A stretch of 64,000 bases of DNA from Bdellovibrionales bacterium (GCA_043764155.1 JAYUKW010000030.1:28603-92602), one strand, 5' to 3'; counted from the stretch's first letter, positions 38,304-42,148 are shown. Translations and numbers: made by a program. Notes: generated from the letters alone by a model not told the origin.

Positions 38304-39467
38304 ATGGTGGGATTAAAGTATTTTCTGTATAGTATTTTAATATCATATTTTTTTTGTTTATCTGTAAATGCTAAATATATTTATATTTTAGATTTTGATG
38401 GAACTCTAGTTGATGACGCTAGATTAAATAGCTCGTGGAAAACCCCTTGGATTTTAAGAAAAGTAGATCAATTAAGATCAAGCACTCAATTAAATAACTC
38501 GATTCGCAGTTCACCAGAGACCATTGAAGTCTCATACGGCGAATACATTCAAATGATGGGATTGTGGTCCGTTGGAAATGGATCCCTTGGCAGCTTTAAA
38601 GAAGTTGCATTAACTGATGACCCTTATTTAAAACGACCTAAAGTCATTATTCCTGGTCAGTACTATGTTGATCCGAACATCACATATAAATATTATCGAA
38701 ACGGTTCTCAAGGAGAAAGCCATCTCGTAAATAATTTTATTGAAGCTAGAAATAGAATTGAACGACAGAAATTAAACCCATTAGACTTTGCAGGACTTGC
38801 CTTTCCGGTTTTTGAAAAAGCCATGAGCCAGACAAGTACGGTCGGTGATGTCCATATATTTACCGCTCGAAATCAAACAGCGGATGAATTTCAAACTTTA
38901 TTTAATCAATTACAATTATTCGGATTTATAAATTATGCCACTGGTGAAAATAAACGAGGACTCCCAACTGCACCTACTATTCATCAACTTCAGGGAATTG
39001 ATTCTATTCTTTATGGAAGAAACTTGATTGAAGGCAAAAAATCTGTTGTTGAAAGCTTGATCCGTCAAATCGCAAATAGCTCTTCGACTCCGACTTTAGA
39101 TTATTCCGCTGAAAATCCTAATCTTATTGTTTCCACTCATACAATCATAGTGGCTGAGGATGATCCTATTAACATTAAAGCCTTAATGCTTTTGATGAAT
39201 GAATTATCGCATGCCCATACGACACGAAAATTAAAACTGGTATTAATGAACACGGGTTCTGATTCAATTTTAAATAAATCGCCCTTTCCGTATAACACTC
39301 GCTGGATTGTTTTTAATCAGGGCTTCCCCAGAGCTGCTATTGAAAATGAAATCAAAAACTACATAGGTGAAAATTCAATTCCACAAAATGTAGTACCTTT
39401 AAACTCTTTAACTCCTAATAGCGCTGCTATGTGTTCCGCTTTTTTAAATAACTCAAAGGAGCAATAA
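38304..39467 (+). CDS. exported HAD-superfamily phosphatase-like protein with C-terminal CxxFL tag
   Basis: Signal peptide ..SVNA; ILDFDGTL (motif I), IFTARN (II), GKK (III), AEDD (IV); CSAFLN near the C-terminus. Confidence 0.75.
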   Translation: MVGLKYFLYSILISYFFCLSVNAKYIYILDFDGTLVDDARLNSSWKTPWILRKVDQLRSSTQLNNSIRSSPETIEVSYGEYIQMMGLWSVGNGSLGSFKEVALTDDPYLKRPKVIIPGQYYVDPNITYKYYRNGSQGESHLVNNFIEARNRIERQKLNPLDFAGLAFPVFEKAMSQTSTVGDVHIFTARNQTADEFQTLFNQLQLFGFINYATGENKRGLPTAPTIHQLQGIDSILYGRNLIEGKKSVVESLIRQIANSSSTPTLDYSAENPNLIVSTHTIIVAEDDPINIKALMLLMNELSHAHTTRKLKLVLMNTGSDSILNKSPFPYNTRWIVFNQGFPRAAIENEIKNYIGENSIPQNVVPLNSLTPNSAAMCSAFLNNSKEQ

Positions 39468-42148
39468 TGAAATACCTAAGTGTAATTGTATTTAGCTCCA
39501 TCATTAAAATAAGCTTTGTTTTTAGTTCAACATCTTCTTTAGCATCAACAGAATGCTTAAACTTTTTATCCCAATCCTCTCAAACTGAGCTTACTCTAGG
39601 AGTCGATCAAGAGGTTATTGCACTTCAAGCTGCTGAGATATTATTTGAACACGCTATGACTTCGCCTTCACGTAAAAAGGTTAACCATGAATCACAACAC
39701 CAAGTAAATGGATATTTAATCGAAGTCGTAACCAACTTTTTTATACAAAATAAAAAAGTACCGACTGCAAATGAAATAGAAGCTTTGTTGAGTATTAGTT
39801 TAGGTCAAAGCGCCAAAGGCTTTTTTGCACAAATTTTAACCCATGGATTAGACGCCTACTTTCAAACTGACGGGGCACCAAACTCCATTTTTGAAATTTT
39901 ACAAGTGGCTGTTAATGTCGCCCGACGTTCAATATTTTTTCCATTCAAAGATCAACTTAGATTAGATGTAATGAAATTTTTTGCTTCACGCTTAAGAACC
40001 CCGTCGCTTTTAGAACTAGCTAAGCTTAAAAATTTAGATGAAAGAGTTATAAGTTTATTTATTCCAAATGCAGACAGCTTTATAAAAAAAGCGATTGAAT
40101 TAAATCCTGATCATATAAACTCAGTCCGTGAAATTATTCTAGCTGTCTACTTTCGAGCTTTAAGCCAAAAAGATTTGGAAGAATCTAAACGAACTCAACC
40201 AACTTCGCCGACTTATGAAAGCTTATTTCTGTCCTTAAGAGCTTCAAAAATCTTACCTGATTTATCTAAAGATATTGAACGAGGCATCTTTACTGTAGAT
40301 CATTTAAAAATACTTATTGATGGTCATCCAGAATTTTCATCATTCATGCGATTGAGTTTATTTTCAGGATTAAAAAGTTTAGAAAATACGGCGAGACTAC
40401 AACGCCCAGGTGCCTTTAAAAACTTTATTCCCGCAGAAGTATATAATCCAGAACGAACAACCGCCTTACTTAAAGCCATGAAACAAAAACAAGGTTTTCT
40501 GATCACTTCAGTGAATGCAGGAATGCCAATCAATGAAGCTATGTTAATCACAATGCTTAAATTTGCTCGCGAAAAAAATTATGACATTGTTGTGATCCCA
40601 ACTGGTGGAATTTTGGATGGTTTAGATTCAAGACTTTTAGAACACTCTAATATTCATATTCTTACACATACAGTTCAAAATAAATTTCTAAGACTTTGGA
40701 ATATCCCTGTCCTTCCTAAAAATCAAAATGGTTTAGCTTCGCTTAGTAACCCTAAACAACATAAACCGATGCAAACAACCATCGTTGGGCATCCAACAAT
40801 TCAACATTACAATGTACCAACTGCGACCAATAGCTCCAGACATACATCGATTTGGTCCACCGGCTCATTAAGTCAAAACAACTACCCTTACCGACATGCA
40901 GTTCAAGGTCGAACGGCATCGCTTGCTAAAAATCAGCATACTAACGGATTTTTAGTTTTAGAAAAAGCCGACGGAGAATCTGGATTCGACAAAGAAGGTG
41001 TTTCAAACTTTTGGCACACTCGCCCCGTTTACTTTACAGATGATTTTAAAACCTTAACAAAAATAGCAGGCTTTACTGATAATGGGACAAAATATTTTGT
41101 TACTGAATCTGATAGATATAATTTAAATTCAGTCAAAAAAGTTGCGGCTAAAATTGATACCTTAGTGCTTGGGGATTTACATGAAAGACTATCAGACTCT
41201 ATGTTTTTAAATGCACTTGTAGACTATTTAAAATCACATCCAGAAATTAAACGTATCGTTTTACATGATCCAATAGATGGCGGATCACACAATCGACATG
41301 AAGCTAAATCCATTTCATTGCTTCGTAAAAAGTTTGCTAAAGGCGAGTTAGACTATCACAAAGAAATGATGGGACTGGTCCAAGTGATTAATGCATTAAC
41401 TTCTATTCGACCAGATTTAAATATAATCGTCGCAGACTCAAATCATAGTTACTGGGGACAACAATTATTAAGCGGAGCTACCGAGTTTCAAGAAATCGCC
41501 AATGGGGACTTTTTAAGTGAGCTTAGATTTGCACAAAGAGTTTATAGTTTTTCCGATCCACTAGAATATGTTTTAAAATATAGAAATGATTTTATTAATA
41601 ATCTTCCAAGACACTCACAAATTGAAATGCTTAAAACAGCTATTTTAGTTGAAAATCCGAACCAAGTTGCAGTCTTAGGATTTGGTCGAAATTATGTAGT
41701 TGGACCGGAGTATAGACAAACTCATGTGAACTTCCATGGACACCAAGGCGCTAATGGGGCAAAGCCCTCTCCTAAGTCTCACGCTATTGGGTCGGAGAGC
41801 GCCATCACAGGGGATTCCCACCAATCCTATATACTTGGAAACTGGATGAGCGTTGGAACTGCGACAGCCCTACAGGTGGGTTACAATGATGGGGGTTATT
41901 CTGCATGGAGTAATTCTTTTGCAGTTATTTATAATGATGGATCCAAACAGCTGTTTACTTACTCCAGCGAAACTGGGACATTTATGGCTCGTGAAGCTGC
42001 GACATCAATGACCGAAGAGGAATTTTTTGGAACCGAAGCTCTAGAAATTTTAATGAATGACAATGATGTAGTTCAAGGTGTTATCGTCGATCAAAATACA
42101 CATATTATAAATTCACTTTCAAACGCAGGCCGAAGAAAAGATAGGTAG
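39467..42148 (+). CDS. exported protein with C-terminal calcineurin-like metallophosphoesterase resembling phage T5 A1-family proteins
   Basis: Signal-like N-terminus + CLNFLS; FLITS..., STGSLSQNNY, LGDLHE, LHDPIDGGSHNRH, SNH, FHGHQGANGA, GDSH, GYNDGGYSAWS; TAATG coupling to the upstream gene. Confidence 0.75.
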   Translation: MKYLSVIVFSSIIKISFVFSSTSSLASTECLNFLSQSSQTELTLGVDQEVIALQAAEILFEHAMTSPSRKKVNHESQHQVNGYLIEVVTNFFIQNKKVPTANEIEALLSISLGQSAKGFFAQILTHGLDAYFQTDGAPNSIFEILQVAVNVARRSIFFPFKDQLRLDVMKFFASRLRTPSLLELAKLKNLDERVISLFIPNADSFIKKAIELNPDHINSVREIILAVYFRALSQKDLEESKRTQPTSPTYESLFLSLRASKILPDLSKDIERGIFTVDHLKILIDGHPEFSSFMRLSLFSGLKSLENTARLQRPGAFKNFIPAEVYNPERTTALLKAMKQKQGFLITSVNAGMPINEAMLITMLKFAREKNYDIVVIPTGGILDGLDSRLLEHSNIHILTHTVQNKFLRLWNIPVLPKNQNGLASLSNPKQHKPMQTTIVGHPTIQHYNVPTATNSSRHTSIWSTGSLSQNNYPYRHAVQGRTASLAKNQHTNGFLVLEKADGESGFDKEGVSNFWHTRPVYFTDDFKTLTKIAGFTDNGTKYFVTESDRYNLNSVKKVAAKIDTLVLGDLHERLSDSMFLNALVDYLKSHPEIKRIVLHDPIDGGSHNRHEAKSISLLRKKFAKGELDYHKEMMGLVQVINALTSIRPDLNIIVADSNHSYWGQQLLSGATEFQEIANGDFLSELRFAQRVYSFSDPLEYVLKYRNDFINNLPRHSQIEMLKTAILVENPNQVAVLGFGRNYVVGPEYRQTHVNFHGHQGANGAKPSPKSHAIGSESAITGDSHQSYILGNWMSVGTATALQVGYNDGGYSAWSNSFAVIYNDGSKQLFTYSSETGTFMAREAATSMTEEEFFGTEALEILMNDNDVVQGVIVDQNTHIINSLSNAGRRKDR

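Follow-up and report, generated by a model that had tools for sequence, protein, structure and literature searches.

The lipobox, the signal handled by Lgt, Lsp and Lnt, consists of [LVI][ASTVI][GAS]C at the end of a hydrophobic core, and its cysteine, which receives a diacylglyceryl group, becomes residue +1; the CaaX signal, which is cytosolic and eukaryotic, places its cysteine exactly four residues from the end of the chain; and the PEP-CTERM, GlyGly-CTERM, MYXO-CTERM and LPXTG signals, which belong to exosortases, rhombosortases, archaeosortases and sortases, combine a motif with a transmembrane helix and a basic tail, with an invariant cysteine in the case of MYXO-CTERM. Here we describe a tag that matches the defining features of none of these: a C-x-x-[FY]-L peptide at either terminus of unrelated exported proteins of a Bdellovibrionales bacterium (assembly GCA_043764155.1), whose cysteine is in most carriers the only one of the mature protein. 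It was recognised in a stretch of 64,000 nucleotides (contig C30:28603-92602, JAYUKW010000030.1; hereafter the window, whose own coordinates we use for the features it contains), where overlapping genes encode a HAD-like protein tagged at its C-terminus and a T5-A1-like metallophosphoesterase tagged at its N-terminus.

The original prediction had proposed a shared C-x-x-[FY]-L-[NS] sequence on the strength of four hexapeptides, CSAFLN, CLNFLS, CNYFLN and CSQYLN, all four of which are where it placed them. The whole genome was scanned (2.73 Mb in 37 contigs, 35% G+C), using 2565 open reading frames (ORFs) from a crude call that took the longest ORF and filtered overlaps greedily; since signal peptides and cleavage sites come from a heuristic based on hydrophobicity and not from SignalP, counts are approximate. 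The regular expression C..[FY]L[NS] has 26 matches: 16 lie in the first 50 amino acids (aa), against 2.9 ± 1.5 in 300 zone-preserving shuffles (maximum 7), four at most 15 aa from the C-terminus, against 0.6 ± 0.7 (maximum 3), and six in mid-protein, against 6.5 ± 2.6. The signal becomes stronger once the sixth position is dropped, C..[FY]L being found 58 times in the first 60 aa (20.6 ± 4.2 in 100 shuffles, maximum 31), 17 times within the last 15 (4.6 ± 2.1, maximum 13) and 54 times in mid-protein (47.7 ± 7.2). Indeed, the [NS] residue that had been counted as part of the motif is unconserved, and the core ends at the leucine. In the 1132 signal-peptide-like ORFs the N-terminal zone, the C-terminal zone and the middle hold 43, 15 and 24 matches, whereas in the 1211 ORFs without a signal peptide they hold 10, 2 and 34; the same zones hold 17, 1 and 23 matches of the reversed motif L[FY]..C, 10, 0 and 37 of C.[FY]L, and 8, 3 and 20 of C...[FY]L. 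The enrichment is limited to the termini, to signal-peptide proteins and to one spacing and orientation. Positional enrichment over background, named beforehand as a point on which the idea might be refuted, is present at both termini, and in signal-peptide ORFs only.

A strict filter, which keeps proteins of 100 aa or more that start with a signal-peptide-like sequence and have the tag clear of the hydrophobic core, leaves 55 carriers, 39 tagged at the N-terminus and 16 at the C-terminus, and the notion of a portable tag, usable at either end of unrelated exported proteins, is borne out across the genome. The cysteine of the N-terminal tags lies 0-4 residues past an AxA-like site in 37 of 39 cases. 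It is preceded by A or S at position -3 in 25 of the 39 (A in 15, S in 10), by N or D at -2 in 16 (N in 10, D in 6) and most often by E (7), S (6), I (5), L (5) or Q (4) at -1, and S, N, T and Q abound in the segment that follows the tag. After the leucine (+4) of the C-terminal tags the chain ends within one residue in six carriers, two in three, three in three, four in one, six in two and ten in one, that is, within one to three residues in 12 of 16; Asn occupies position -2 (N-x-C) in 10 of 16. The N or D at -2 could be a helix N-cap or a part of the recognition motif.

What the original prediction had missed is that the tag cysteine is the sole cysteine of the mature protein in 45 of the 55 carriers. 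No other cysteine is present in 34 of the 39 proteins with an N-terminal tag, which together have 21 further cysteines where 119.8 would be expected, nor in 11 of the 16 with a C-terminal tag (13 against 42.1), making 34 against some 162 for all carriers; just 23% of the non-carrier signal-peptide-like ORFs are free of cysteine. Even carriers of 2279, 1063, 893 and 844 aa have a single one, in an organism whose exported proteins otherwise use cysteine freely. This purge suggests that the tag cysteine must stay available and escape intramolecular disulfides, from which we infer a covalent role for its thiol. The periplasm itself appears to be oxidising, given two DsbA-family genes in the genome and many exported proteins with an even number of cysteines, one of them terminal. 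The latter belong to another phenomenon: exported ORFs have a cysteine at -2 to -7 from the C-terminus 139 times where about 55 are expected (a 2-3-fold excess), and the proteins concerned, two examples of which lie in the window (49842-51293, minus strand, and 56462-58084, plus strand), mostly have an even cysteine count and no motif. Often a second cysteine lies just past the signal peptide. This excess looks like end-to-end disulfide stapling, distinct from the single-cysteine tag.

In the window the HAD-like protein (387 aa; 38304-39467, plus strand) has a signal peptide at about aa 1-23, and its tag core CSAFL (aa 377-381; 39432-39446, plus strand) is followed only by NNSKEQ and the stop codon, the full hexapeptide CSAFLN spanning aa 377-382; Cys377 is its only cysteine outside the signal peptide. 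The stop of this gene overlaps the start of the next, which encodes the 893-aa T5-A1-like or metallophosphoesterase protein (39467-42148, plus strand), whose single cysteine opens the core CLNFL (aa 30-34; 39554-39568, plus strand; CLNFLS being aa 30-35) three residues past a cleavage-like SLA. None of the four carriers that are complete in the window matches a Pfam or NCBIfam family, and blastp finds no match among the four. The earlier guesses at their domains stand as leads only. The HAD-like protein has the motif I sequence DFDGT (DxDGT, aa 30-34), with conservation of 90% or more at both D30 and D32 across 72 homologues. An AlphaFold2 model of it, built from 72 sequences, has a predicted local distance difference test score (pLDDT) of 91.4 and a predicted template-modelling score of 0.86. 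The best fold match of this model, by VIA, is the T4 Pnkp 3'-phosphatase, at a 'middling' Z of 8.0 with a root-mean-square deviation of 3.3 over 131 aa, and other HAD entries follow, the best at Z 7-8 and many at Z 6-7, also in the middling range; the best Foldseek hit is a HAD phosphatase at E 0.026, which is not significant alone, and Foldseek against the PDB gives nothing at E ≤ 0.001. For the 893-aa protein, which has no Pfam match, the assignment stands on motifs and clusters: the metallophosphoesterase metal motifs DxH, GD, GNH[DE], H and GHxH are present, with D570, H572, D601, N659, H660, H757 and H785 invariant in 24 homologues, the protein groups with 'T5 A1 family' clusters in the Atlas (at 0.91), and its model matches viral metallophosphoesterases and two phage proteins of 530-608 aa in Foldseek (E 2e-38 and 6.5e-30).

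The models agree with the claim that the tag lies outside the folded domain, as a short predicted helix beyond a disordered tether. The fold of the HAD-like protein ends near aa 355 and is followed by a tether at aa 356-373 (39369-39422, plus strand), where pLDDT falls (79, 49 and 55 in successive blocks of aa 351-380, and below 50 at aa 362-364 and 368-373), and then by a predicted tag helix at aa 374-382. The model of the 893-aa protein, built from 24 sequences and with a pLDDT of 85.1, has a predicted helix at aa 28-39 (pLDDT about 45) that includes the tag, then disorder to about aa 55-70, where the fold starts. In the family of the 2279-aa carrier a Phe at -4 is conserved too, giving a periodicity of i, i+4, i+7 and i+8 that would place the Phe, the cysteine, the hydrophobic residue and the leucine on one face of a helix.

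The tag is kept in relatives. Across four genomes of the same genus, with orthologues 42-78% identical, the tags persist while their flanks drift: CNDYL, CLEFM, CVKYL and CLNYL in the A1-like proteins, CSEFL, CLTYL, CTKFL and CTQFL in the HAD-like ones, and CETFL in the counterpart (genome G003) of the GNAT-like protein described below. All four orthologues of strict carriers found in genome samples keep theirs. The tag is under purifying selection. An exhaustive search returned 101 representatives of the HAD-like family, 91 of them full-length, of which 82 have a signal-peptide-like start, 88 a cysteine in the last 20 aa and 79 exactly one cysteine past residue 30; in the alignment of the 72 homologues, conservation at Cys377 reaches 90% or more. 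Position +4 is hydrophobic in 79 of the 88 (L in 41, F in 25, V in 8, I in 3, M in 2), and some 21 strong full-length matches come from at least 11 families of the phylum. Within this genus the core of the motif reads C-x-x-[FY]-L, and in the phylum at large C-x-x-hydrophobic-[LF]. In about 140 further genomes, including a Bdellovibrio-like genus (g47), ORFs of about 300 aa give weak partial matches to the HAD-like profile (roughly its positions 125-316), and probably represent a related but different family.

Gene order is conserved as well. An A1-like gene adjoins the HAD-like gene in 17 of 18 neighbourhoods from the phylum, with the N-terminal cysteine motif flagged in 13 of the 17 A1-like proteins and the C-terminal motif flagged in the HAD-like protein of 13 loci, and the order HAD-like (C-tag) to A1-like (N-tag) is seen in five genomes of the genus. 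A second case is that of a 1063-aa SpoVR-DUF444 fusion and the 2279-aa protein encoded upstream of it. Thirteen or more genomes of the class have long homologues of the fusion, with an invariant N-terminal cysteine in the 13 aligned; the C-terminal cysteine of the 2279-aa protein shows 90% conservation or more across 14 homologues, and the C-tag-then-N-tag order of the two is kept in about 12 class genomes.

For the taxonomic spread we rely on three protein families and one clear genome sample. Counting matches of the regular expression in five other genomes, each sampled over 400 kb, is underpowered, to the point that the first 400 kb of our own genome give 4 against 2.6 in the N-terminal zone and 4 against 0.7 in the C-terminal one. 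With a stricter single-cysteine filter a clear signal is seen only in G010, a genome of the same family, which has five tags of the form C..[LI]L, all C-terminal, or 3.5 for every 100 ORFs with a signal peptide. The tag form differs by genome, aromatic-Leu here and Leu/Ile-Leu in G010, while being common to the unrelated carriers of each, which argues for a common reader. The 400-kb sample of the Bdellovibrio-like G050 gave dubious matches only and no clear tags, which may explain why the model organism never revealed the tag.

The carriers have little in common apart from the tag. An all-against-all blastp of 75 relaxed candidates found one true paralogue pair among tag carriers; 41 of the 54 carriers scanned have no Pfam family, no NCBIfam or Pfam model is common to the 54, and no NCBIfam sorting-signal model is among the matches. 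Those with a recognisable domain include Fic, Amidoligase_2 and, twice, HNH proteins (one of them weak), the SpoVR-DUF444 fusion, a weak PrkA-like protein, a papain-like peptidase and a weak C39-like one, TPR proteins, a DUF7790 protein and an 844-aa ClpA/ClpB-like AAA+ protein (TIGR02639, 1e-63; contig C2:8497-11031, L087) with a signal-peptide-like N-terminus. One more, an HTH protein, lacks a signal peptide and was probably counted as a carrier in error. As far as their family assignments go, the recognisable domains are of cytoplasmic type. Enzymes in need of ATP, acetyl-CoA or DNA would be of little use in the periplasm, and might work only inside another cell. The AAA+ carrier would be an ATP-dependent unfoldase that is apparently exported, and its single cysteine lies six residues before its end.

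Carriers also tend to be neighbours: six adjacent pairs are found where 1.16 are expected (P=0.0006), and more if the variant tags CEILL and CELLY are counted. Among the clusters are one with the PrkA-like protein (N-tag), the 2279-aa protein (C-tag) and the SpoVR-DUF444 fusion (N-tag), one with a TPR protein (N-tag), the AAA+ protein (C-tag) and a 395-aa protein (N-tag), and that of the window, with the HAD-like (C-tag) and A1-like (N-tag) proteins and a convergent GNAT-like one (N-tag). Neighbours that both have an N-tag occur too. For the most widely conserved tagged pair a complex was predicted in two runs, each chain with its own alignment, from the C-terminal 433 aa of the 2279-aa protein and residues 23-520 of the SpoVR-DUF444 fusion; the ipSAE was 0.00, which is evidence neither way.

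The first of these clusters (contig C29:18885-31476; L118, L130, L119, L132) amounts to an exported paralogue of the PrkA/YeaH/YcgB module, which is ordinarily cytoplasmic. Its PrkA-like protein (850 aa, weak match), its 2279-aa protein and its fusion of 1063 aa each have one terminal cysteine, and a signal peptide is present at both N-termini that were read, those of the PrkA-like protein and the fusion. An ordinary YeaH exists too (C1:2571-3437), in a family of 366-378 aa found in almost all 121 genomes of the class, the exported fusion being patchy. Elsewhere, one tag carrier is present in two copies on contig C36 (about 31069-52222), where several pairs of genes, such as 31069-32775 and 50516-52222 or 39282-39836 and 43455-44009, show 100% identity and run in inverted order, either through duplication of a large segment in inverted orientation or through an artefact of the assembly.

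The GNAT-like protein of the window (226 aa; 42186-42866, minus strand), which has a single cysteine and whose gene is convergent with the A1-like one, weakly resembles GNATs in its predicted structure (template-modelling scores of 0.41-0.53 to GNAT clusters among Atlas structure matches) and is a lead only. Its tag core CNYFL (aa 40-44; 42735-42749, minus strand; CNYFLN being aa 40-45) is an outlier, 19 residues past the nearest AxA-like site. The fourth is a 141-aa exported protein with a GTG start and a single cysteine (62259-62684, minus strand), its tag core CSQYL (aa 21-25; 62610-62624, minus strand; CSQYLN being aa 21-26) lying two residues past VHA. Its public gene call is of 109 aa, from Met33, and so lacks the signal peptide and the tag; the longer GTG-initiated form has an upstream ribosome-binding site, GAAGGG, and an orthologue in G003, 36% identical, keeps both the signal peptide and a tag (CNSYL). 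Automated annotation may thus be systematically hiding N-terminal tags. A word-index homologue search with the 141-aa and 226-aa proteins returned self matches only. A fifth carrier, of 415 aa (contig C30:27976-29223), enters the window with its C-terminal 206 aa (1-621, plus strand), its N-terminal tag CSNFL lying just upstream of it. The remaining exported ORFs of the window have no tag, as the original prediction had said of those with ordinary periplasmic roles (lipase, peroxidase, GumN, L,D-transpeptidase).

How does this tag compare with the signals from which we started? Like the lipobox it is a short cysteine-centred signal after a Sec signal peptide, and many canonical lipoproteins here also have a single cysteine; its conserved residues, however, follow the cysteine (+3 and +4), and 16 carriers are tagged at the C-terminus. 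Besides the tags, the genome has canonical lipoboxes (132 by regular expression), and we side with the earlier view that the tag is not one: a lipobox calls for a small residue (G, A or S) at -1 and hydrophobic ones at -3 and -2, whereas the commonest residues of the N-terminal tags are E, S, I, L and Q at -1, N and D at -2 and A and S at -3; the cysteine stands 0-4 aa past the AxA-like site in 37 of 39; and C-terminal versions exist. CaaX, a portable tag for the attachment of a prenyl lipid, shares with it a C-terminal cysteine-containing tetra- or pentapeptide with hydrophobic residues after the cysteine, and was rejected on the grounds that the tag cysteine lies 6-15 residues from the end, that the proteins are Sec-exported and that there are N-terminal versions. 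The exosortase and sortase type is similar in being a short C-terminal motif on many unrelated exported proteins, with lineage-specific forms, and was rejected because only 1-10 residues follow the tag, none of them forming a hydrophobic helix, and two thirds of the tags are N-terminal. The C-terminal domain of the type IX secretion system (T9SS) is a folded one of about 70-100 aa that Pfam and TIGRFAM models recognise; no such family is among the top 25 listed in the Pfam and NCBIfam tallies of the 54 carriers, and the tag itself has 5-10 aa on a disordered tether.

Two further likenesses are analogies. The secretory tailpiece of IgM and IgA, and AB toxins, use one unpaired cysteine on a short terminal extension for a single intermolecular disulfide that joins subunits, and in AB toxins reduction in the cytosol of the target frees the enzyme; these belong to other kingdoms and folds, have no sequence relation to the tag, and the bond is here proposed only. 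The encapsulation peptides of microcompartments and the cargo peptides of encapsulins are short helices on flexible, poorly conserved linkers, at either terminus of unrelated enzymes, and serve as portable address labels. They are, however, cytoplasmic, have no conserved cysteine and are encoded beside shell genes, whereas the tag carriers are exported, the residue that matters most is the cysteine, and among 260 genes beside the carriers no shell-like family, nor any other, recurs.

We tentatively read the tag as a portable terminal 'thiol handle' for one covalent link, a reading whose chances we put not far short of evenly balanced. After Sec export and cleavage by signal peptidase I, the protein would present, on a disordered tether 15-40 residues long, a short helix of amphipathic character with the sequence [N/D]-x-C-x-x-[F/Y]-L, about three residues from the new N-terminus or one to three from the C-terminus, the cysteine sharing a helical face with the aromatic residue and the leucine. 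A lineage-wide reader, be it an enzyme, a carrier or a second copy of the tag, would bind that face and form one intermolecular covalent bond, of which a disulfide to a carrier or operon partner is the likeliest kind. The tag would probably mark prey-directed proteins, as suggested by the sorts of protein that are tagged and by the name of the organism's family, and a reducible link would free the cargo in the cytoplasm of the prey. In a bolder version, which we hold to be unlikely, the tag would be the address label of a hitherto unrecognised delivery route common to the whole phylum Bdellovibrionota. By this route Sec-exported enzymes of cytoplasmic type and free of other cysteines, among them nucleases, an AMPylator, an unfoldase and a phosphatase, would be joined by way of the thiol to a carrier able to translocate, cross the outer membrane of the predator and the envelope of the prey, and be released by reduction in the prey cytoplasm, following the logic of AB toxins with the tag at either end.

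Several observations weigh against this picture. A genome that is 100% complete has no match to the DsbB family (PF02600), which leaves the oxidation pathway unclear. Among the 260 neighbours no gene family recurs more than three times beside carriers, hence there is no candidate reader, and neither a partner, nor a carrier, nor an enzyme for the tag was found there. Three clusters have three single-cysteine carriers each, which cannot all pair one to one, and most carriers (about 35) are singletons. The cytoplasmic type of the cargo is that of the 13 of 54 carriers with a Pfam match, several of them weak and one probably false; the tag helix is of low confidence (pLDDT about 45-58); and the predatory lifestyle is taken solely from the family name, the organism being a metagenome-assembled genome.

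A second-step sorting signal for a delivery route, or a disulfide or acyl link, as the original prediction had it, would each be compatible with the data, which do not discriminate among them. The readings differ in what the cysteine would be bound to, and we rank them with a disulfide to a partner or carrier first, a tag-to-tag bond being a special case of it, followed by lipidation, by non-covalent sorting and by a redox switch. That operon partners, or homodimers of singletons, are joined end to end by a tag-to-tag disulfide, as by a 'tailpiece', with no separate reader, is suggested by the conserved C-tag-then-N-tag gene order of the HAD-like/A1-like and 2279-aa/SpoVR-DUF444 pairs, which recurs in the AAA+ cluster; the C-terminus of the HAD-like protein would for instance be tied to the N-terminus of the A1-like one, in complexes resistant to proteases. 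A self-complementary tag would also account for its common form throughout the genome, and the organism already staples chain ends by disulfides. Still, the three-carrier clusters, the singletons and the N-tag/N-tag neighbours do not suit such pairing, and a motif of five residues could hardly encode the specificity of partners. A fusion of the two window proteins was sought, and there is none among the seven long ORFs with partial HAD-like matches that were inspected, which are other exported proteins, of other classes, with a near-C-terminal cysteine and a hydrophobic residue at +4. On balance we see this special case as somewhat improbable. Lipidation, by a second Lgt-type or other acyltransferase acting on the cysteine at the membrane surface without cleavage by Lsp, would explain a lone cysteine and the selection against others, which are expected of a lipidation site, and the hydrophobic face formed by the cysteine, +3 and +4 would fit interfacial binding; anchored to a membrane or vesicle, the cargo would travel to the prey with the outer membrane of the predator. 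The genome has two LGT-family (PF01790) genes (C22:9912-10919 and C1:20577-21278), one of them with an open frame that extends over 364 aa, and most of the 121 phylum genomes have at least two LGT matches, which are match counts and not copy numbers. Lgt, however, modifies a cysteine adjoining a membrane-embedded signal peptide. The tag is no lipobox: its -1 residue is E, S, I, L or Q, its cysteine lies past the AxA site, away from the hydrophobic core, and at the C-terminus it is not beside a membrane-embedded signal peptide at all. These mismatches make lipidation unlikely in our eyes.

Doubtful too is a purely non-covalent second-step sorting signal for an outer-membrane translocon or packaging factor, the cysteine being part of the recognition or of a transient mixed-disulfide checkpoint. 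Portability to either terminus, a flexible tether, a genome-specific form and cargo that is useless unless it leaves the periplasm would all be expected of it, and scarcity of cysteine suits proteins that cross a second membrane unfolded or free of disulfides. What it leaves unexplained is why the cysteine is invariant while +3 drifts among hydrophobic residues, and why this cysteine is kept while others are purged; nor is there candidate machinery among the neighbours of the carriers. We give very little credence to a redox or metal switch, in which the terminal cysteine would fold back and inhibit the enzyme until a reducing compartment is reached, in the style of a cysteine switch. A single reactive cysteine on a tether long enough to reach the active site would allow it, and several carriers are metal enzymes (the metallophosphoesterase, the HNH and the HAD-like proteins), but others have folds without catalytic metals (AAA+, Fic, TPR), AlphaFold2 leaves the tag undocked from the domain, and it is unlikely that one motif would serve so many unrelated active sites.

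No description of the tag was found in the open-access literature, supplements excepted, so that an earlier mention is possible; in PMC12622784, which has a NanoLuc secretion assay for B. bacteriovorus, the word 'cysteine' was not found. If the cysteine were lipidated by a second Lgt, or merely dimerised, the novelty would be less, and the tag would still be a new lineage-wide signal. It also bears on annotation: gene callers can cut the tag off, and the four carriers of the window are all without a family name. The tag provides, for any genome of the phylum, a list of candidate cargo, and with it a single residue to mutate, a peptide to transplant and a bait for the reader. It touches on the question of how predatory bacteria deliver enzymes to the cytoplasm of their prey: by picking out about 2% of the proteome, rich in orphans and in enzymes of cytoplasmic type, it would make that question of delivery directly testable.

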